DNA of 64,000 nt, taken from the NCBI RefSeq assembly GCF_016903815.1, contig NZ_CP069973.1; one strand, 5' to 3'. Position 1 is the stretch's first letter; each line of letters starts with the position of its first letter. The notes under the pieces were generated by a model. The model made no database searches. It saw only the letters and a program-made list of their open reading frames with translations, and was not told the DNA's origin. Origin of the DNA: Escherichia coli. GTDB lineage: Bacteria; Pseudomonadota; Gammaproteobacteria; Enterobacterales; Enterobacteriaceae. Below, one piece after another: positions 15,374 through 27,300 of the stretch. A program made the position numbers and the translations under genes.

Positions 15374-17350
15374 ATGCAGCTTAATCATATCGTTAAAAGT
15401 CTGCTAATAACGGGATTATTCACCACCAGTTCTTTACCTCTCCTCGCGGCGGAAGCTCCTAAAGACGCCACCGCAGCCACGCAACAAGCAAACAATTTAC
15501 TCTACAACCAGTTGCCGTTTGCCGATAACACTGACTTTACTGATGCCCATAAAGGTTTTATTGCCCCTATCCCTCAAGACGTGATTAAGGGCGAACAAGG
15601 GAATGTTATCTGGGATCCACAACATTACGCTTTTATCAAAGAAGGCGATAAAGCCCCTGATACGGTGAATCCGAGTTTATGGCGTCAGGCGCAACTGATA
15701 AATATCAGCGGGTTATTCGAAGTAACTGAAGGTGTCTATCAGATTCGCAATCTCGATCTATCAAATATGACCATCATTGAAGGCAAAGAGGGTATTACCG
15801 TCGTTGATCCCCTTGTTTCAGCAGAAACAGCCAAAGTGGGTATGGATCTCTATTACAAAAATCGCGGCAAAAAACCGGTAGTGGCGGTTATCTATACACA
15901 CAGTCATGTCGATCACTACGGTGGTGTTCGTGGCGTAATTGATGAAGCTGACGTTAAATCAGGCAAAGTTAAAATCTATGCGCCAGCCGGATTTTTGGAG
16001 GAAGCCGTTTCCGAAAACATCATGGCTGGCAATGTTATGAGCCGACGAGCCAGTTATATGTATGGCAACTTATTGAAACCTGATGTTAAAGGCCAGGTGG
16101 GGGCTGGACTGGGAACGACTACTTCAGCAGGAACAGTCACGTTGATTGCTCCTACTAACTACATCACCAAAACCGGACAAATAGAAACTATTGACGGGTT
16201 GACTTATGATTTCCTGATGGCGCCAGGTTCTGAAGCGCCTTCTGAAATGCTGTGGTTTATTGAAGAAAAGAAACTGATCGAAACCGCTGAAGATGTCACG
16301 CACACCCTTCATAACACCTATTCGCTGCGTGGGGCTAAAATTCGCCAACCGCTGCCGTGGTCAAAATATATTAATGAAGCTCTCAATTTGTGGGGTGATA
16401 AAGCCGAGATTATTCTCGCTCAACATCACTGGCCAACCTGGGGCAACGATAACGTGGTCAAACTGCTTAAAAGCCAGCGTGATTTGTATCGTTACATCAA
16501 TGATCAAACTCTGCGCATGGCTAATCAAGGGATGACCCGTGATGAAATTGCCGCAAACTTTAAACTGCCCTCTTCACTGGCTAACACCTGGGCGAATCGC
16601 GGCTATTACGGTTCGGTAAGTCATGACGTGAAAGCAACTTACGTGCTTTATCTCGGCTGGTTTGATGGTAACCCCGCGACGCTTGATGAACTGCCGCCAG
16701 AAGAAGGCGCAAAAAAATTCGTCGAGTATATGGGCGGTGCTGATGCCATTTTACAGAAAGCCACACAGGATTATGACCAGGGTAATTTCCGCTGGGTTGC
16801 CCAAGTTGTTAGTAAGGTGGTGTTTGCCGATCCAAACAACCAGGCAGCGAGAGATCTGGAAGCTGATGCGCTTGAGCAGTTAGGCTATCAGGCTGAATCT
16901 GGGCCGTGGCGTAATTTCTATCTCACTGGTGCACAGGAATTGCGTAATGGCGTACAAAAATTACCAACACCAAATACTGCCAGCCCAGACACCGTGCGTG
17001 CGATGACGCCGGAGATGTTCTTTGATTATCTTGCCGTCCATATTAATGGTGAGAAAGCGGCAGATGCCAAAACCGTGTTGAATTTCGATTTTGGTGAAGA
17101 TGGCGGCACCTATAAAGTGGAGCTTGAAAATGGTGTTCTCAATCATACCGCTGGTGTAGAGGCTTCGGATGCTGATGCCACTATCACTCTGTCTCGTGAT
17201 GTATTGAACAAAATTGTACTGAAAGAAGAGACGCTGAAAGAAGCCACGGCCAAAGGAGATGTCAAAATTACTGGCAATGAGGAAAAACTCAACGAGCTGT
17301 TAGGTTATATGGATAATTTTGAATTTTGGTTCAATATAGTGACACCATAA
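15374..17350 (+). CDS. Secreted alkyl/aryl-sulfatase, metallo-beta-lactamase fold (SdsA1/YjcS family)
   Basis: 658 aa; signal peptide; THSHVDHYGG zinc motif; GGAGA RBS; not present at this position in K-12 as I recall it. Confidence 0.8.
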   Translation: MQLNHIVKSLLITGLFTTSSLPLLAAEAPKDATAATQQANNLLYNQLPFADNTDFTDAHKGFIAPIPQDVIKGEQGNVIWDPQHYAFIKEGDKAPDTVNPSLWRQAQLINISGLFEVTEGVYQIRNLDLSNMTIIEGKEGITVVDPLVSAETAKVGMDLYYKNRGKKPVVAVIYTHSHVDHYGGVRGVIDEADVKSGKVKIYAPAGFLEEAVSENIMAGNVMSRRASYMYGNLLKPDVKGQVGAGLGTTTSAGTVTLIAPTNYITKTGQIETIDGLTYDFLMAPGSEAPSEMLWFIEEKKLIETAEDVTHTLHNTYSLRGAKIRQPLPWSKYINEALNLWGDKAEIILAQHHWPTWGNDNVVKLLKSQRDLYRYINDQTLRMANQGMTRDEIAANFKLPSSLANTWANRGYYGSVSHDVKATYVLYLGWFDGNPATLDELPPEEGAKKFVEYMGGADAILQKATQDYDQGNFRWVAQVVSKVVFADPNNQAARDLEADALEQLGYQAESGPWRNFYLTGAQELRNGVQKLPTPNTASPDTVRAMTPEMFFDYLAVHINGEKAADAKTVLNFDFGEDGGTYKVELENGVLNHTAGVEASDADATITLSRDVLNKIVLKEETLKEATAKGDVKITGNEEKLNELLGYMDNFEFWFNIVTP

Positions 17351-17396: not shown

Positions 17397-18494
17397 ATGG
17401 CTGAACGAAGAAAAACTCATCACTCATGGAAAACCCGCCGCGATATGGTTATTCGCGGCATGACGATTAGTTTGCCATGGTTTGCTTTTATCAATGTCAG
17501 TTTTGCATTGATAATTTTGCTGCGCCGTGTTCTGTTTAATGACCTTACTCCACCCTGGTTAAATGAAAAAAGCCTTATACATTCTATTGATATATCTGCA
17601 ACGGGTATTCTGCTGATTTGCAGTGGTTTACTACTCATCCCTCGGCAAAAAACATTACCTATCCAGGTGCTATTAGTTGCCCTGAGCCTGCTATGGTCAT
17701 GGTGTAGTTATCACTTTATTGCGTACTGGACGCTGCAGTTTGCTTATCCACTATGTGTATTATTAATGCTTAGTGGCGTTGTCGCACTTTATTTCCATAC
17801 CCCATCATTGCTCGCATTTGTCATTCCCTTATGGTTCACCACTCCAATAGCGAGTCTTATGCTTAATCAACAGATCAATATTCATTTTGCTGTTGTATGG
17901 TGTATTTTTTCACTGGCGCTATATGGTGGGCGACTCATTTTGTTACGTTGGTTTGAAGAAGCATGGATACAAAACAGTTATAACAACCAGTTAATTAATC
18001 GCCTTGATGCATTAGCACATCGTGATCCTTTAACTGGGATAGCAAACCGACGTGCAATGAACAGTATCTTACACGACGCGATGGATAACGGCGGGTCATT
18101 TGCTCTTATTATGCTGGATGTCGATTTTTTTAAACGTTACAACGACACTTACGGGCATCCTGCTGGGGATCGTTGTCTAATACAAGTTGCCGACGCTCTA
18201 CAGCGTTCAACTCGCCAGTCGGAGGATGTTGTTGTCCGTTATGGTGGCGAAGAGTTTGCCATCATACTTTTTAATGCAACATTGCCGGAAGCAGAGACGG
18301 TAGCAGCCAGAGTGAAGCAAGAACTTAAACTGGCAGCTATCCCACATCAGGCATCTGCTGTTAATGCATTTGTTACGGTTAGTCAGGGGATTACCTGTTC
18401 TGCTCCCGCAAAAACGGCTGAACAAATTATTTCAGATGCCGACGCTGCGTTATACCGGGCGAAAGAAAGTGGGCGAAATCGATGGGCTTTATAA
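17397..18494 (+). CDS. Membrane-anchored diguanylate cyclase (multi-TM N-terminal domain + GGDEF)
   Basis: 365-aa ORF; hydrophobic N-terminal ~200 aa; RYGGEEF active-site motif; start codon uncertain (no clear RBS; internal Met candidates at 17445 and 17460); AT-rich. Confidence 0.8.
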   Translation: MAERRKTHHSWKTRRDMVIRGMTISLPWFAFINVSFALIILLRRVLFNDLTPPWLNEKSLIHSIDISATGILLICSGLLLIPRQKTLPIQVLLVALSLLWSWCSYHFIAYWTLQFAYPLCVLLMLSGVVALYFHTPSLLAFVIPLWFTTPIASLMLNQQINIHFAVVWCIFSLALYGGRLILLRWFEEAWIQNSYNNQLINRLDALAHRDPLTGIANRRAMNSILHDAMDNGGSFALIMLDVDFFKRYNDTYGHPAGDRCLIQVADALQRSTRQSEDVVVRYGGEEFAIILFNATLPEAETVAARVKQELKLAAIPHQASAVNAFVTVSQGITCSAPAKTAEQIISDADAALYRAKESGRNRWAL

Positions 18495-18567
18495 GCATTA
18501 GGGGACTGGACAGATTACGTCTCTCCTCGCTTAACAAGGGCTGACGGAGGGTAATAATTGTCTATAG

Positions 18568-19119
18568 CTATCTTCTTAGCGATGTCTTTCTGGTATCACA
18601 TTGGATCGGTGCAATTATTTTTCCTTTAATACCCATTATGTTAAGAAATTCAGAAACAGCTGTAATCTCATTGTTTTTTTCATTCGTCTTGATCTTCCAA
18701 GGAATCTGACTGTGCATTATTGAGAACACACTAATAACGTGAATCGCTCCCTTGCGACGACTCTTGTCATAAGAGTACCGGAGCGTTTTTCCATCAATTG
18801 CAATGACGTCTTTATCATCTGAAGAATGGCAGTCAAGCATCCAGTTAATAAAGCACTCATGAAATTTTTCAGGACTGATACAGGATACAACTCTGGCAAT
18901 GGTATCGTGAACAGGAATACCATTATCAAAATCACCATATTGCTTCAAAAAATCGAGATGTGTTTCCCCAAAATCCTCTATATCTTCCCAGCCTTCTGCA
19001 CCCGAAATAACGGCACAAATAGTCAACAGTAGAATATCCGATAATTTATGCTCCACTTTCCAGGCTTGTCTGTAATCGGGGATAATAGAAATATGTTCCA
19101 TCAATTTTTTAAGTTCCAT
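18568..19119 (-). mobile_element. H-repeat-associated (ISAs1-family) transposase, N-terminal fragment only
   Basis: 183 aa, [50 protein letters not shown]... recognised as H-rpt/YdcC-like; full-length proteins are about twice this size. Confidence 0.75.
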
Positions 19120-19254
19120 TTTGTTCTCCTTAATTATGTAAAGAGTATTTGATCATGTATAAGCAATAAAAAACAGCTTTAGGTAATGAGGAATATCTCA
19201 ATTTTTAAACATAAAATGCGAATTATTTAGTACAAAAAAGCAGCGTTACGTGAT

Positions 19255-19390
19255 CTTTCCCTGCCCTATCGGGTCTGTGTGATATATCGTCCCTGTCCCG
19301 GATTGTAGTACCGGTGCCAGTTGTAGTGCAGTTCGGATTCGTCGTCATACTGCTAGCCCGGATGGCGGAGCAGTTGCTCTAGTCACTCAG
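19255..19390 (-). pseudogene. Vestigial rhs core 3'-end fragment (nonsense + frameshift)
   Basis: Minus-strand translation [34 protein letters not shown] aligns with the main Rhs ...[35 protein letters not shown]; clear nucleotide similarity to 20331..20460. Confidence 0.6.
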
Positions 19391-19424
19391 AATATTGTAA
19401 TAGTAATATAGTGCAGTGCCGGTT

Positions 19425-19823
19425 TCAATATCCTAACGCTGGTCTTTTGCCTGTATTAACTGATTTAGCTGGTTTGCTACATATTAATGCCTTCAGATTT
19501 TCCCTTTCCTTGTCTGTGATACTGTCGCAAACCCTACTAGCCCATTCTACTTCACTCTTCTCCAGGCATTCAATTTTCTTATTGCTCATTGTTCTAATGT
19601 TTGGTGTTGCATCTCCATTTAATAACATCCATGTTTCATTTTTCTTCATAAAACATCTTCCATTATGTTCAAAGATATTAGGTGTGAATATATTATCAGA
19701 ATCCCATGTTACGACTTGCTCGAGGGCTATATTATCTTGATAGTCCATGCCAGAATTATAATAATCACAAGATATAATTATCATGGAAATAATTATCACT
19801 AATATCTTCCCAAGCATTTCCAT
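19425..19823 (-). CDS. Putative Rhs-toxin immunity lipoprotein
   Basis: 132 aa, immediately downstream of and abutting the rhs stop; lipobox IIS-C with Asp at +2; AT-rich; assignment is by position. Confidence 0.55.
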   Translation of the reverse strand: MEMLGKILVIIISMIIISCDYYNSGMDYQDNIALEQVVTWDSDNIFTPNIFEHNGRCFMKKNETWMLLNGDATPNIRTMSNKKIECLEKSEVEWASRVCDSITDKERENLKALICSKPAKSVNTGKRPALGY

Positions 19824-22800
19824 TTACTTTACCTCTTGAAATTTAAATGGGAATCCAGTGAAAGGACCTTTAGGCATAATATATCTTTGATATCCATAAA
19901 ACTCACCGAGCACTTGTAGGCTTATAGGCGCATTTGTATTCATAGAGGGGTTGTTAAACCCGCACGCCTCAAAAATCATGTTCGTTCGGCTAAAACAATT
20001 ATTTGCAACAGGAAGAGGCCCGAGGTTAATAGTTTTTAGTTTTTTATTAAGGTCTATTGCCTTATTCATCATACATTGTTCTTCTTCATCTGTTGTATCT
20101 ATTATCCAAATCCAGGTATCTCTGCGGGGTTGCATCTTTTTAAAATAATCAGAGACAGAGGCGCCCATCTCATCCCCAGTTCCCGAACTCATTAATCCAT
20201 ATCGATTTGCCGCCGCAGCATGCCCAAAAGGATTATCAGGAACGGGGCCATTACCTATTATCATAGTACTAAGGCCTAATGGATCAACGTGTTGCACTGG
20301 ATTCAGCGGATATTGGTACAGATTCCATCCCCCATCCCCCCCTATCGGGTCCTGGATGATATACCGCCCCTGCAACGGATCGTAGTACCGGTGACGGTTA
20401 TAATACAGCCCCGACTCCTCATCGTGTTGCTGCCCTGGCAGACGGTACGGCTGGTGCAGGTGATGCGGGTTTTCCTCATTCAGCAGGTTTCCCCACTCAT
20501 CATACTCCCCGCTCCACGCCGTATTGCCGTCTTCGCTGATGAGCGCCAGCGGCAGGCCCCGGTGGTCGCAGTGGTAAAGATGAACTTTTCGCGCCGGTGT
20601 GTATTCCGGCTCCACCTGTCTGGCCAGTTGCTCTACCGTCAGCCCGCACTGCGCAAGCCACGCCCGGCTTTCACTGCTCACGCGGTCTGCCCGGATTTCT
20701 TCCTCCAGTCTGTCCAGCAGCCGTACCAGTTCAGCCGGGAACACCACGCCGTGCCCGTCCTCGCTCCCTTCCTGCTGCAGCTTCTCCGCCAGGCTGTGGC
20801 GCTGCGTTTTCTCCCGCTCGCCGTTGTCTGTTTCGATGCGGATGAGTGGTGTGAAGCTTCCCGGCTCGTATACCGTCTGGATCCGGCTCTGTTGTGTCTG
20901 TATCGTCGTCAGCCTGTCACCGTCCCAGCCGTACCACGTTACCTCCGGTTTACGCGACAGCGACATCCACCCCGTCAGGTCACGTACCCGCCGCCACACC
21001 CGTTTACCCGTCCGGCGGCCCAGCGGGTCGTAGAGGTAGCGGCTCTCCACCTGCGGCTCGCCATGCTGTATCCGCGTGTAGAACTCTAGGCGGTGCTGGC
21101 TGTCGTAGTGGTAGTGGTGGGTCCGCTCGTCGTCCGTCCGTATCACACCCGCCGGGATGCGGTCCGTCTTCTCCGTCAGCCTGCCGTATTCATCGTGGCG
21201 GTAGACATAGTGCGCATCCTCCGCGATGCGGTTATCCAGCCACACTGTGAGTGTACTGTCCGGGTGCAGCTCCGGGTCCGGCAGCCGGTTGCCCGCCGGG
21301 TCCGTGGCATACGGGATGCGGATGTCCAGGTCCGGTGCGAGGGTGCGCACACTCGCCAGCCTGCCCGTGGCGCTGTAGCCGTATTCCCGCGTCTGTCGCG
21401 GGCCGCTGATGCGCACCAGGTCGCCGTTGTCATTCCACCCGTAGTCACGGTCATACACCAGGCTGTTCAGGTGCTGGCTCTGTAACTGGCCTGCGGGGGT
21501 GTATGTGCTGGTCAGTTCGTATGCGGCATTACTGCCTGCCATGCTGCCGAAGCTGCGCACCGTCTCCCGGTGCAGCCTGTCCCGCGTATACTCGACCCGC
21601 GGCGTCCCGCCCAGCTTCATGCCCGCCAGATAGCCGCTACCATAGGTCAGCCACTCCACCGGCGGCAGGCTGTCCGGCGTGACGCGGTTTGCCAGCCCCT
21701 GCTCGTTGTATGCGTGTTTCGTCTCATGCTGCCACAGCAGTTCCCCCGTCTCCGGGTTCTCCACCGTCTGGCGTTCGCCGGTCAGGCGGCCTTTATCGTC
21801 ATAGCCATAGTGGACGGCAACACGGTGGCCTTCACTGGTATGGCTGAGGGTGGTTAACCACCCGTGCTCATCATACTGCCACTGCTCTGCCGGGTCGCCG
21901 TTCACCGTCCGGTGCGTGATGCGGTCTGCTTCATCGTAGTACCACTGCGTGACCTGCCCCTCATCCTCGCTGCGGATGAGCTGCCCTGTGGCGCTGTACC
22001 GGTAACGCTGTGTCCTGCCATCAAAGCCGCGCTGCTCCGTCAGGCGGTCCAGCACATCGTAGGTAAATTCACTCCGGCTGCCGTTCTCGTTGGTCAGCGT
22101 GGTGACACGTCCTGCCGCGTCATACTCCATACTGCGCGTCAGCCCGCCCTGCGTGGTGCTGACCGCTTTTCCCCACGCATCGTACTGTGTCTCGCTCCGG
22201 TTGCCGTCCGGGGTGATAACGGCAGTCAGGTCGCCTGCGGCGTTGTACTCATACTGCGTTTCACGGCCCTGTGCGTCTTTCACCGAGGTTAACCGGCCAC
22301 GGTTGTCATAGCGGCGGTAACGGCTGATACCTTCCTCGCGGTGGACCGCCGTCATCTGACCAAAGCGGTCGTATTCATAGCGGGTCTGGTAGCCCGAGCA
22401 GTCGGTGAACGCCAGCAACTGCCCGTAGCGGCTCCAGGTCATCTGCCGGGTGCTGCCCGTCGCATCCGTTGTCGTCGCCGGTAACTCACTGTACGCGTCA
22501 TCGTAGCGGTAGCGTACTGTCTCCCCGCTGCGCGATGTCTCCGTTACCAGCCTGCCCGGTTCATCATATGCCCGGCGGCTCTCCAGCCCGTCCGGGGACA
22601 CCACTGCCGTCACCTGGTTCCCGTCGTTATAGTAAAATTTCGTCTCCCGCCCGTCCGGTGTGGTGATGTCCGTGATATCGCCTGACACCACATTCAGACC
22701 GTACTCTGTCCGCCGTCCCGCCGCGTCCGTCTGCGCCGTAAGCCTTCCTGCCGCGTCATACCCACTGTGCGTGGCGCTGCCGTCCGCCAGTTCTTTTTTC

Positions 22801-24029
22801 ACCACCCGCCTCAGCCCGGCCCCGCCTTCTGTATGCAGCACCTCACGCCGGTTCAGGCTGTCCGTGACGGTGATGCGGTCCTGCTCATACTGGTAGCGGT
22901 AACTCAGGCCTGCCGGGTTCAGCTGCTCCACCACCCGCCCCGCATCGTCGTAGCGGTAGCGCATCTCCGGCCTTCCCGCGTAACGGTGCGCCACCATCCG
23001 GCCCGGGTGCTGCGCGTCATACGTGAAAGCGCGCACCTGCGTATTGCTGCGGTCATATACCGCCAGCAGTTCACCGGCTTCCGTATACGTGTACCGCACC
23101 AGTGGCGCACCGGGCAGGCTCTCCGGGTATGCCGGGTCGTGCATCAGCCACACCGCCGAAAGACGGATGCCCCTGTCGGGGCCGTATTCGGTACCGGGCA
23201 GTGTGTCGGGGAACGCTGAGGCTGAAAGAGGGCGGGGGGTGTCAGGGGAAAATAAGGAAGCGGTGTGCTGTTTACGGGCCTCTTCCGCCCGCTGCGCCTG
23301 CGTGGTCAGCACCAGACGGAACTCCCGCCCGGCACCGTCCGTCACGCCGGTGATTTCCCCGGCCAGGTCACCGGCGGCCTCACGCCGGTACGTCAGCCCG
23401 GTAAGCACCCGGTACGGCGGCAGCGGCGCTGGCAGTACGTCCTCAGTGCCCGGCACCCGCTCTGACCACCCCAGTATCCACCACGGTCCCTGTGCGCTGT
23501 TGGTCGCCAGGTAAAGATGCGGGCTTAACCGGATATCCGGCGGCAGCGACGCCCACAGCCGTGCCAGCGTGTGGCCGTCCGGCTGCGCTGCCTTACCACC
23601 GCGAACCAGCCACATTGACTCGCTGCGGCTGTACACCGCCCCCCCCGGCAGCAGCGGCTCAAAGTGAATGCTCCGTCCGCCGTTGTCGTTGAGTACCAGT
23701 GCATCATCGCGTATCTGTAAGCGGATATCAGAAGGCGCTTTCCAGCCGGGGCCAAAAATTCCCACCGGCGCAGGCGTCTTCGTCCGGTAGCTGCTGTAGG
23801 TGCGGGAGAGAATGAACGGCAGCGGGCCGGGCAGCGCAAGGTCCGTCTCGCCGGGCAGCACCTTCGCCCCCAGCAGCGGATTTACCGGGTTGCCCGAAGT
23901 CATCCTGCCCGGACACACCGAGCACGCCACGCCGGTGGGCGCGCCAATTCTTACACCTGCCGAACCCTGGACAATGGGACCGCCATACTGAGTCATATCT
24001 CCCTGACGCGCCGCTGGTTTTCCGCTCAT
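19824..24029 (-). CDS. rhsE: Rhs-family polymorphic toxin with N-terminal PAAR-like domain, YD-repeat core and variable C-terminal toxin domain
   Basis: 1401 aa; N-terminus [11 protein letters not shown]; many YD repeats; core ends at ...[27 protein letters not shown], followed by a 148-aa AT-rich tail (19827..20270); gene symbol by synteny only. Confidence 0.9.
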
Positions 24030-24095
24030 GATTCAATTCCTTCTTCTGTTTATTTTTAATGCTTGTTTGTTACTGAATACCGAACAGGTACGGGA

Positions 24096-26204
24096 TCAGT
24101 ACTCTCTCATATCCGGCGTATCCTGCTTTTCATCAGGGGTCTTCGGTGGGGATTTCGAGGCTGCACAGTTCCAGTTAATCAACAGTGAGTCACCATTAAC
24201 CTGCTCCTTACCCTGCAAATGAATTTTTGTGCCGTTGAGAAAAATTTGTCCGTCCTTAGTCAGCACCAGCCTTGCCTTACCACAGCAGAGTTCCAGATGC
24301 TCACCGGCGGAGTAAATCGCGGTCTGCCCGGTATCATCCTTTTTCGTTTTACCAACGGTGAAGGTAACGTTATTTCCGACTTTGACGTCATAACCCAGCC
24401 CGACCATCAACGATTTATGCAAACCGATCTGCGAGGACTGCATCAGGGCCACCGAAGTGTTCATAATGCCACCTACCGTCGTCTGATACGCCACGCCCAC
24501 AGTCAGCGCACGAACAAGTCCAATCGTTTCCACCTGAACAGAGCCCACTTTAATGATCTGGTTACTGCCCACCGTCTCTATCTGGTTAACGCCCACCGTC
24601 TGTATCTGATTGTTGGTAACCGCAATCATCTGATTGTTGCCAATGGTCTCAGCATGGTTGTTTATCACATCCGTGGTGCGGTTATTCAGCACCTCGGTGT
24701 TCATGTTCTTCTGCGCGTGGATGTAGACCTGTTCTTTCCCTGTCGCATCGTCAAACTTCAGTTCATTAAACCCGCTGCCCTTATAGGTTTTCGAACGAAT
24801 GGTCATCTGCGTCTTTGTTCCCGGCAGGCTGCCGGGGGTGCGGTTTTCCTGGTGGTAGGTACGCCCCATAATAATCGGCTGGTCCGGATCGCCGTTGAGG
24901 AAGTCCACAATGACTTCCTGACCCACACGCGGTATCGCCAGGTTGCCAAAGCCGGTGCCTGCCCACGCCTGTGCCACACGGATCCAGCATGAACTGTCCT
25001 GGTTTGACGGGTTATAGCGGTCCCAGTTAAATTTCACCCGCACGCGGCCATGTTCATCACAGAAGATTTCTTCTCCTGCCGGTCCCGTCACGACGGCGCT
25101 CTGCGGGCCGTCCACCAGCGGTTTCAGCAACGGCTGTGGCCGCCATGTTCTGTCTGCCGGTATTACCGCAAAGTGGTTATTCAGCGTGGTACCTGAACCC
25201 CTGCGTCCCGGCACCGCCTGCGGCTGCTCGCCGTGCAGTTCACTTGCCACCACCTGCCATTCCCGGTTCAGGTTCGCCTGCGGATGCCCCGTCAGCGCAA
25301 TTCGCCGTCCCGGCCATATCTCCGGCGAACGGCTTGTTCCGCGCGCCACTTCTGCGTTGTTTCGCCAGCCATCCATCTGCCAGCAGGCAAAGTTCTGCCC
25401 GTGGGCACCCTTGAAACGTCCGGGGTAGTCATACACTTCATACTGTGTGCGCTGGTAATCCTGGTGCTGGCCTTCCTGATCAAAACGCCCTGCCCAGCCG
25501 GGTCGTTTAAAGGTGTAGTCTTTGGTCACCACGGAAGATGGGCGGATTTGTGCGCTGTAGAGGAACTGGCTGATGCATAGGGTGCTCACCTCGGTACGGG
25601 TGTTCGGATTCCAGGGGATCTCAAAGGACTCCGGCAGATAACGCACGGTGTCGCACAGGACCAGGCTCTGGTCGGTACTTTTTTGCGCGTGCTCCTCATA
25701 AAAGAAGATGCCTTCCTCCGCCGCCATCCGGCACAGGAAATCGTAATCGGTTTCGCCGTACTGGACACAAAACTCACGGGAAGGATGCGGCTCGCTGAAC
25801 AGCGGACTCCACTCGGTCACCCCGTTTTCTTTCAGGATCGTCGCGAGTATGCTTTCGATGTCCTCATTCTGGAAGATACGGAAGTTCTGGCGCAGCCCTG
25901 TGCGCCACAGTGGTGGGCACACCTTCATGCTGTACAGCATCTGGTTTTTGTCGTTCTCCCCCAGTTCAAACCAGGTCACCACACCTTTCACCCGGCGCTG
26001 TACGTCATCGCCCTGCCATACCGTCAGGTAGGCCATTTTGTCCAGCACCTGCGCAAATTCAAGGGAGAGAAACTGCTGGCTGACCAGAGAGAGATCGAGG
26101 GAAAAGAGCGAAGAGAATGACTGGTTCAGATGAAAGGAGACCACCGCAAACGCGTCCGGTGGCAGGCCGTCCACTTCCAGCGTGAAACGTAATCCGGCTG
26201 ACAT
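24096..26204 (-). CDS. vgrG: Type VI secretion spike protein VgrG
   Basis: 702 aa from MSAGLRFTLEVDGLPPDAFAVVSF (internal Met of the track ORF, GGAGG RBS 7 nt upstream); 66 nt upstream of rhs. Confidence 0.88.
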   Translation of the reverse strand: MSAGLRFTLEVDGLPPDAFAVVSFHLNQSFSSLFSLDLSLVSQQFLSLEFAQVLDKMAYLTVWQGDDVQRRVKGVVTWFELGENDKNQMLYSMKVCPPLWRTGLRQNFRIFQNEDIESILATILKENGVTEWSPLFSEPHPSREFCVQYGETDYDFLCRMAAEEGIFFYEEHAQKSTDQSLVLCDTVRYLPESFEIPWNPNTRTEVSTLCISQFLYSAQIRPSSVVTKDYTFKRPGWAGRFDQEGQHQDYQRTQYEVYDYPGRFKGAHGQNFACWQMDGWRNNAEVARGTSRSPEIWPGRRIALTGHPQANLNREWQVVASELHGEQPQAVPGRRGSGTTLNNHFAVIPADRTWRPQPLLKPLVDGPQSAVVTGPAGEEIFCDEHGRVRVKFNWDRYNPSNQDSSCWIRVAQAWAGTGFGNLAIPRVGQEVIVDFLNGDPDQPIIMGRTYHQENRTPGSLPGTKTQMTIRSKTYKGSGFNELKFDDATGKEQVYIHAQKNMNTEVLNNRTTDVINNHAETIGNNQMIAVTNNQIQTVGVNQIETVGSNQIIKVGSVQVETIGLVRALTVGVAYQTTVGGIMNTSVALMQSSQIGLHKSLMVGLGYDVKVGNNVTFTVGKTKKDDTGQTAIYSAGEHLELCCGKARLVLTKDGQIFLNGTKIHLQGKEQVNGDSLLINWNCAASKSPPKTPDEKQDTPDMREY

Positions 26205-27300
26205 AGCAACCTCCGTGAAAATGAATAATAATCCGCACATATTGCATGTACAACATGTCGGGCGGATGAGATAAGCGAGTCGACATCTGGCGTTACCGGG
26301 GAATATCAAAAAAATGTCATGGTTATGTGATGATTTAGTCTGGGATTTTACTTCAGAGAAACGGGTGTCTGTTTAGTCAACAAAATAATCACAAACGCAA
26401 CGGATGGGTTCTCGACGTTATTCACGACAGGCTCGCGAGTAATAAAAACCTGATATGCAAAGTCAAACCAATATTCATAATGTCTTTTTATTCACAACAA
26501 TAAATAATTCAATAACAATCATTGAAATGAATGATGGTTTGTATAAGGAATATACGCTACCGCCCCACCCTGAAAACATGAACTGCACATTGCCATCTTA
26601 ACGTCGTTAAACACTGGCTTAATAGTGGGTATTTAAAATTAGGAATTTATTAAATTCACCTGATGAATATCATAAGCAAATAGCATAGAAAATAATGACA
26701 ACTCCCCCGAGGGGACCATTTCCAAAGCACTGCACCACCACCTGGTGCCCGGATGATCTTGCTTCATTGGTAAGAGTACCTGATTCATTGTTTCCAAAAT
26801 GGTGTTTTCCCCGGCCCCTCCAATAATGTGCAGCTCTCACGTGATAATCTATTGATTAGGTTATATTAAGAATCAATATTTGAAATACATCCATTTTCTT
26901 GAATAAATCAACATGTTTATTTATCAATTGCTGTTTTAGCTCTGACTCATCAAGCTCTCCATATTTGTCCTACAGATAATCGCGAATAAATACAGAGAAC
27001 GCCATTTATCCTTTTAGCATACCTGCCGGATATTTTTATTTGTATTAATATTAATTGCATCTCCAACTCCGAGCATATCCATCATTAAAAACATTTTGAG
27101 ATTATAGAATGCCTGTGATAACAACTGAAACATCTGCACAATGTGAATAGTTAGTTTCTTTTCAGAGGAAATGAAATAGACAAGCTGAATGAAAGGGAGA
27201 GTAATATAAATTAAAAAAATAACATGAATCTAATTAATTACGTCCATCATTGTGGATAAAGTTACTGAATAATAAATAACATAATCTTCTGGCATCCCAC

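Follow-up and report, generated by a model that had tools for sequence, protein, structure and literature searches.

Rhs loci are known to undergo C-terminal displacement (Jackson et al. 2009, PMC2935791). In that work, the attached and the dissociated core fragments within a locus are identical and belong to one clade (PMC2935791). Rhs orphan modules have been described as 'silent cassettes' (Poole et al. 2011, PMC3150448). A functional orphan in S. Typhimurium shares 522 bp at 95% identity with rhs-main, to which it can be fused by recombination (Koskiniemi et al. 2014, PMC3967940). We analysed a stretch of 64,000 nucleotides from an Escherichia coli contig (NZ_CP069973.1), hereafter the window, that holds a short piece of Rhs core 3' end downstream of an intact rhs gene and its presumed immunity gene. 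This piece, hereafter the stub, is very probably a non-functional vestige of a displaced orphan Rhs toxin/immunity module at an rhsE-type, VgrG-linked E. coli locus. It is an already annotated case of a well-described process, tip displacement followed by IS-associated erosion.

Over positions 18400..20500, the window matches the chromosome of E. coli strain 7/2 at 100% identity. The rhs array is encoded on the minus strand and is bounded by yncH and pptA/yddH/nhoA/narI, a site that we take to be that of the RhsE element on the K-12 map. The gene order is VgrG, Rhs, immunity gene, stub and H-rpt, which is that of an E. coli rhsE-type, VgrG-linked locus. Related strains have features named 'ydcC' and 'RHS element protein dsORF-e4' at the corresponding site. 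In brief, the gene for VgrG, a type VI secretion spike, lies upstream of rhs (24096..26309, minus strand), and its product has the Pfam domains Phage_GPD, Phage_base_V and Gp5_trimer_C (RefSeq 'type VI secretion system tip protein VgrG'). The rhs gene (24029..19824, minus strand) is intact and encodes a full-length Rhs of 1401 aa. Its core (20271..24029, minus strand) contains 12 Pfam RHS_repeat matches as well as DUF6531 and RHS, is named 'RHS element core protein' in RefSeq, and ends with DPLGL at 20285..20271. After DPLGL comes the present toxin tip, which is 148 aa long and, with its stop codon, occupies 19824..20270 on the minus strand. The presumed cognate immunity gene (19425..19823, minus strand, 132 aa) has its ATG directly after the rhs TAA. 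It is followed on the same strand by a spacer (19378..19424), the stub (19264..19377; 114 nt of Rhs core 3' end) and an ISEc1-like H-rpt element of the ISAs1 family (18569..19263). Beyond the H-rpt lie a GGDEF-domain gene (17397..18494) and an alkyl/aryl-sulfatase gene (15374..17350), both on the plus strand. The initial annotation had placed the fragment downstream of the immunity gene and beside a truncated H-repeat element. Both neighbours are as described there: the 132-aa ORF occupies 19823..19425, right after the Rhs stop, and an ISAs1-family (H-rpt) transposase gene is found at 19119..18568.

The present tip (coding part 20270..19827) has no sequence match in Pfam, NCBIfam or PDB and belongs to an uncharacterised family. 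The 132-aa ORF has no Pfam or PDB sequence match, and its one NCBIfam match is insignificant (E 0.009, far below the cut-off). Tip and ORF always co-occur in other strains and loci (WP_000425544/547), and the immunity function of the ORF is presumed from its position. The N-terminus of the immunity protein is lipoprotein-like (MEMLGKILVIIISMIIISC), and this signal hints that the tip toxin may act in the periplasm.

A blastN search, using the minus strand of 19424..19130 against the whole window, reported a single non-self match, in which 19359..19264 aligns to 20435..20340 (97 columns, 75% identity, E 8.8e-12). A global alignment of 19377..19264 with 20454..20340 has 81 identical columns out of 115 and one 1-nt gap. 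Together the two alignments place the homologous 3'-end segment of the resident core at 20340..20454 on the minus strand. The resemblance of some 135 bp at 19255-19390 to 20331..20460, on which the initial annotation was built, is thus significant, but its span has to be shortened at both ends. Positions 19263..19255 belong to the H-rpt repeat, and the homology begins near 19377-19385 rather than at 19390.

The stub begins 47 nt past the stop codon of the immunity gene, and the spacer between them has no similarity to the rhs core. Its minus-strand translation gives 32 letters before the frame shifts to DPIG, and its counterpart in the resident core has 37 letters. A stop and a 1-nt deletion had been noticed in this translation of the core-end block. 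We locate the stop, an in-frame TAG, at 19355..19353, and the deletion, a missing G, between 19275 and 19274. When the stop is read as Q and the frame is repaired, the resulting 37-aa peptide reaches 47.5 bits with TIGR03696 Rhs_assc_core, above the curated cut-off of 32.5, and aligns to profile positions 17-52 of 76. It also matches NF041261 RHS_core at positions 1203-1238 of 1261. We did not find an intact frame through the PxxxxDPxGL boundary in the stub, which carries the TAG and the 1-nt deletion and ends at DPIG, about 20 codons before DPxGL. The stub is therefore a pseudogene fragment and, as a gene, no member of TIGR03696. There are no YD repeats and no start codon upstream of it. As in orphan modules, core homology is found without the N-terminal delivery region, downstream of a full-length rhs and an immunity gene. 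RefSeq annotates window positions 19275..19382 as the pseudogene CRT46_RS27375, 'RHS repeat-associated core domain-containing protein; internal stop; incomplete; missing N-terminus and C-terminus'. In E. coli 7/2, the PGAP pseudogene for the stub is flanked by the immunity gene on one side and by a partial ISAs1 transposase on the other.

Comparison with other E. coli genomes, where a second toxin/immunity pair had been thought possible, did reveal one. Strains CX07, OkiPb01711 and ECONIH4 have a complete pair at the exact position of the stub. In CX07, the spacer and the stub are present with a few substitutions, and the stub runs in frame into 28 further residues and then into a 128-aa tip that matches Pfam Tox-WTIP (PF15654, E 2e-13). 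This tip is followed by a 114-aa ORF (WP_001279018), by about 260 bp that include an IS66-end fragment, and by a full H-rpt. The arrangement in CX07 is a typical orphan Rhs toxin/immunity module. The complete module occurs in about 393 of 5426 complete E. coli genomes, counting matches that cover at least 80% of the query. By the same criterion, a 251-nt probe found the stub-to-H-rpt junction in 156 complete E. coli genomes. Compared with the 5' end of the complete module in other strains, the stub has 97-100% identity. The spacer is common to the complete-orphan strains, and 19378..19424 is near-identical in CX07, OkiPb01711, AST240, 2824 and WL297.

The window is 96.4% identical to CX07 over 19260..20600 and 93.6% identical over 19260..24100, and its positions 18569..19263 align to the CX07 H-rpt. 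A segment of 1082 bp in CX07 (locus L002, 7697..8778) has no counterpart in the window. The 114-aa ORF is within this missing segment, and no toxin domain, DPxGL motif or orphan immunity gene is found after the stub in the window.

Two further observations concern the complete module. In CX07, the orphan immunity region is separated from the H-rpt terminus by 89 bp (L002, 7697-7785) that match the end of IS66-family elements, which are found on many plasmids and chromosomes. In the ancestral arrangement, this stretch appears to be one more IS scar. One E. coli ORF of 197 aa (P0001) has an unrelated N-terminal sequence, MFHTIVSIKNDGHYFCRAGGNRPDGLNEPVT, joined to the orphan, which indicates another rearrangement breakpoint inside the same stub.

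The same tip is also found attached. At the same chromosomal site in strain MLI114, the Tox-WTIP tip and its 114-aa partner are joined to a full-length Rhs. The core of this Rhs is 93% identical to that of the window, and the sequences switch right at DPIG. The flanking genes are alike where the Tox-WTIP tip is attached (MLI114) and where it is dissociated (CX07, OkiPb01711). The tip is thus active in one strain, displaced downstream in others and represented by a stub here, which is the pattern of C-terminal displacement. The fragment had been proposed to be a remnant of a displaced or orphan toxin tip. Its origin from an orphan module is borne out by the complete pair elsewhere and by the attached tip of MLI114, but it is no remnant of the tip itself; the stub stops at DPIG and holds core end only.

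Based on these observations, we suggest the following history. An older module, consisting of a core-end stub of a Salmonella/Citrobacter-like lineage, Tox-WTIP and the 114-aa immunity gene, would have stood at the end of rhs or downstream of it. The present tip and immunity gene would then have been acquired, and the older module would have been left silent downstream by C-terminal displacement. Later, the lineage of the window would have lost 1082 bp, comprising the remainder of the core end with DPxGL, the whole of Tox-WTIP, the immunity gene of the orphan and some 260 bp of spacer. This loss may have come about by an adjacent deletion via intramolecular transposition of the H-rpt, or by the entry of an H-rpt copy into the orphan and subsequent recombination between H-rpt copies. 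What is left is the present 114 nt with stop and frameshift, which encode nothing, can supply no toxin and are too short and too diverged for recombination with the resident core.

We infer both the order of these events and the IS-mediated mechanism of the deletion, the latter solely from the position of the breakpoint, which coincides exactly with the end of the H-rpt at its terminal inverted repeat. The transposase ORF of this element (19119..18568) is frameshifted and without its C-terminus, and it matches Pfam DDE_Tnp_1_assoc and NCBIfam transpos_ISAs1 (E 1e-49). The element does not have both of its ends, as the sequence is cut at 18569. The left terminal inverted repeat, CAGGGAAAGATCACGTAACGC, runs from 19263. 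Read across the junction, the sequence is ...GATAGGG followed by CAGGGAAAGATCACG, or in longer form ...GACCCGATAGGG followed by CAGGGAAAGATCACGTAACGC. Homology to the H-rpt ends at the base corresponding to window position 19263 in more than 5000 genomes. The 21-nt CAGGGAAAGATCACGTAACGC is an imperfect inverted repeat of CAGGGCAAGATTACGAAAGCC at the far end of a full copy, with 16 of 21 positions identical. In CX07, the same H-rpt terminus abuts different DNA. Because the homology stops at 19263, the repeat pairs with CAGGGCAAGATTACGAAAGCC and the CX07 flank differs, the right side of the junction is the H-rpt terminus. CAGGG is the typical end of ISAs1-family elements.

We found a second junction in which the IS end is kept and the breakpoint lies 25 bp deeper in the stub (...GGGACAGGGAC followed by CAGGGAAAGATC). 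AST240 carries it in a yafV-linked rhs locus, whereas in 2824 and WL297 it is found at the rhsE locus. IS-mediated adjacent deletion, an outcome of intramolecular transposition, is classically known from IS1, IS10 and IS903. Nested endpoints at one intact IS end are its classical signature, and the truncation of the stub points to such an IS-end-anchored event, as far as the sequence can tell. It should be noted that the window H-rpt is only about 91% identical to the CX07 copies, so that the deletion is not directly derivable from a CX07-like ancestor. We did not find an intermediate with an H-rpt inserted in an otherwise intact orphan, and the partial-coverage matches that we inspected contained no split orphan. 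In AST240, the sequence past the far inverted repeat does not continue the orphan.

The same orphan origin could also be combined with a truncation that involved no IS activity, either an illegitimate or microhomology deletion or a recombinational import that ended by chance at the H-rpt boundary. We regard this as possible but unlikely. At the junction, a C, or else an imperfect C.GG, is common to both parental sequences, and the locus is highly mosaic, with crossovers inside the H-rpt evident from the identity profile of the window against AST240. Furthermore, the same truncated H-rpt abuts unrelated sequence in strain B1.H1.39. However, the breakpoint matches the terminal CAGGG of the inverted repeat to the base, and the independent second junction, 25 bp deeper, also has the IS end intact. 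Two random deletions that end on one base are unlikely, which counts against a truncation of this kind.

Several other rearrangements were seen around the H-rpt. In strains 2824 (L010, near 3480) and WL297 (L011, near 3490), a group II intron (ltrA; 5' end GTGTGCC...) is located 15 bp inside the H-rpt terminal repeat, where CAGGGAAAGATCACG is followed by GTGTGCCGTAGG. This intron directly adjoins the stub that is 25 bp shorter. In OkiPb01711, a related intron region (L003, 3327-4649) comes after the complete orphan pair. The far end of the window H-rpt is cut at 18568/18569, beside the GGDEF and sulfatase genes. Both genes are missing at this site in CX07 and MLI114, whose H-rpt is directly followed by pptA/yddH. 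The junction between the truncated H-rpt and the GGDEF gene is 99.5% identical in B1.H1.39. The Rhs of that strain has a 77%-identical core, another tip and a pentapeptide-repeat immunity protein.

The stub preserved in the window differs considerably from the core that it resembles. They are 70-75% identical at the nucleotide level and about 65% identical at the amino-acid level. The 33 substitutions between them are distributed 20/7/6 over codon positions 3/1/2 (chi-square about 11, p about 0.004). Because the mismatches are concentrated at third codon positions, most of the divergence arose while both sequences were coding. The bulk of the 25-30% divergence thus predates inactivation and reflects a different Rhs core lineage. 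The stub peptide is nearer to Salmonella/Citrobacter-type core ends than to the resident core, and a run of 16 residues is exactly matched in two orphan-type Rhs fragments from Salmonella (P0031 and P0049). In the initial annotation, the stub was read as a second, degenerate copy of the 3' end of the rhs core. With 20 of 33 changes at third positions and a Salmonella/Citrobacter-like peptide, this description does not hold.

A second copy of this kind would have arisen by local tandem duplication of the gene's own core 3' end and later decayed by random mutation, which we consider very improbable. It is true that the homologous segment is on the same strand, about 950 bp upstream of the stub, and that the stub has a stop and a frameshift. 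However, the 20/7/6 pattern is characteristic of divergence under purifying selection rather than decay. In other strains, the complete orphan has a 5' end that is 97-100% identical to the stub, and the stub peptide fits Salmonella/Citrobacter-type core ends better than the resident one. The resident-type core of MLI114 is likewise only 75% identical to the stub.

The lesions of the stub differ in age. The TAG is found in every E. coli copy examined, complete orphans included, and so are several changes that are not conservative (G to E, Y to H and R to W). The 1-nt deletion and the truncation are absent from the aligned complete orphans of CX07 and OkiPb01711, and the AST240-type stubs do not extend to the position of the deletion.

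At the DNA level, we did not find the parent core of the stub: the best match among full-length E. coli cores is about 80% identical, and the six core ends of an orphan array in Salmonella range from 69 to 79%. A search of 5.8 billion proteins with the CX07 orphan gave 288 matches, and there was no full-length parent with the stub among the best 120. All 120 are short Rhs C-termini (116-324 aa), either orphan-like or partial, and most of them come from Salmonella, Citrobacter and Enterobacter. The best relative of the whole orphan outside E. coli is an 81%-identical Tox-WTIP orphan from Salmonella enterica, encoded in a VgrG-Rhs-immunity-orphan array. As a point against our own reading, the simple single-crossover version of the Jackson model does not account for the origin of the stub at this locus, since stub and resident core share only 70-75% identity, whereas attached and dissociated fragments were identical in that work. 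These observations suggest that the array was assembled on another core lineage and may have been imported whole. The Salmonella enterica genome GCA_005427735.1 (L007, 6701-12445) has a VgrG-Rhs locus with six core-end copies, which is a long orphan array. Its Tox-WTIP orphan, 81% identical to that of E. coli, is 291 aa and has a much longer core stub, of about 130 aa.

With the toxin domain, the DPxGL motif and the immunity gene of the orphan all gone, the stub is inert, and it persists by linkage to the present tip/immunity cassette. The longest exact match between the stub and the resident core is 12 nt. We found no Rfam match in the stub region at E<=1, and a terminator scan found no terminator-like site in the region. 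The number of promoter-like matches is within about 2 sd of that in shuffled sequence. It is hard to believe that the stub is kept for a function of its own, as a recombination substrate for tip switching or as an RNA, promoter or terminator serving the immunity gene or the H-rpt transposase. Such a role would be in keeping with the spread of the junction, which is found at two or more chromosomal loci and in 156 of the complete genomes, and a weak promoter-like match does lie at 19428..19400. However, promoter-like matches are at background, and there is nothing in Rfam or in the terminator scan to suggest an RNA or a terminator. With no toxin or immunity gene after the stub, recombination with the core would merely destroy an active gene, and an exact match of at most 12 nt within about 115 nt at 70-75% identity stands against 522 bp at 95% identity in the functional Salmonella case (PMC3967940). 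The stub is moreover shortened or lost in several ways in other strains, and its spread is accounted for by hitch-hiking with the tip/immunity cassette.

That the similarity between stub and core is a coincidence between unrelated sequences can be dismissed, as only the modest identity of 75% favors it, against an E-value of 8.8e-12 within the window, a restored peptide above the curated TIGR03696 cut-off, and a sequence that in other strains runs on into a bona fide Rhs C-terminus.

A side observation concerns the mobility of cassettes. A block of the window from about 18970 to 22000 is 95-99% identical to the yafV-linked rhs locus of AST240 (L006). This block begins in the part of the H-rpt nearest the IRL, continues through stub, immunity gene and tip, and takes in about 1.7 kb of 3' core. 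Beyond the block, the distal H-rpt is about 80% identical and the 5' core 59-82%. The mosaic suggests, speculatively, that cassettes are exchanged between rhs loci by two crossovers, of which one lies in the core and one in the H-rpt. The association of H-rpt with Rhs elements has long been noted. Based on the AST240 block mosaic and on at least two nested endpoints at the same IS end, we tentatively raise the rather doubtful idea that the H-rpt serves as a downstream homology arm that moves cassettes of core end, tip, immunity gene and orphan from one rhs locus to another, and that its terminus repeatedly trims orphan arrays by adjacent deletion. If true, this would give a functional reason for the association of H-rpt and Rhs.

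On its own, the stub matters little; it is an annotated remnant that illustrates a documented process. It can serve as a marker that the lineage once carried a Tox-WTIP pair, or imported a cassette derived from one, and that the immunity gene was lost at this locus. As judged from this locus only, the loss could leave the strain sensitive to kin that deploy Tox-WTIP, for example MLI114-type strains. The exact IS-end breakpoint and the mosaic profile are small data points on how H-rpt shapes rhs loci.

The RhsE element of K-12, as we take its map to read, consists of rhsE, ydcD and H-rptE/ydcC beside pptA-nhoA, with core-extension fragments and dsORFs. Presuming this map, the locus in the window resembles RhsE in its chromosomal site (yncH ... 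pptA/yddH/nhoA/narI) and in the order of rhs, small ORFs and H-rpt. On the same assumption, it differs in that the Rhs of the window is intact (1401 aa), VgrG-linked and equipped with a different tip, and in that the H-rpt is truncated at its far end beside the GGDEF and sulfatase genes.

The truncation resembles the adjacent deletions of IS1, IS10 and IS903: one IS end is intact, the flank is missing to a varying extent, and the endpoints lie at the same terminus. Unlike in those cases, H-rpt/ISAs1 activity is presumed here from sequence, and the truncated element offers neither a target-site duplication nor a reciprocal product for comparison.

The CX07-type ancestor agrees with orphan Rhs-CT/RhsI modules: its core stub lacks a start codon, its PxxxxDPxGL is followed by Tox-WTIP, and it has a cognate small ORF. 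Unlike the S. Typhimurium orphan, the copy in the window has no toxin, no immunity gene and no usable homology (longest exact match 12 nt). With an identity of only 70-75%, the core portion of the stub is neither identical to the resident core nor of its clade, in contrast to the displaced tips of Jackson et al. It differs from these also in that the tip itself is deleted and the core-end stub alone is left. As with the displaced tips of Jackson et al., however, the stub lies downstream of an intact rhs and an immunity ORF and opens with a short core 3' end, and a complete tip with a small ORF is found at the site in other strains and attached in one.
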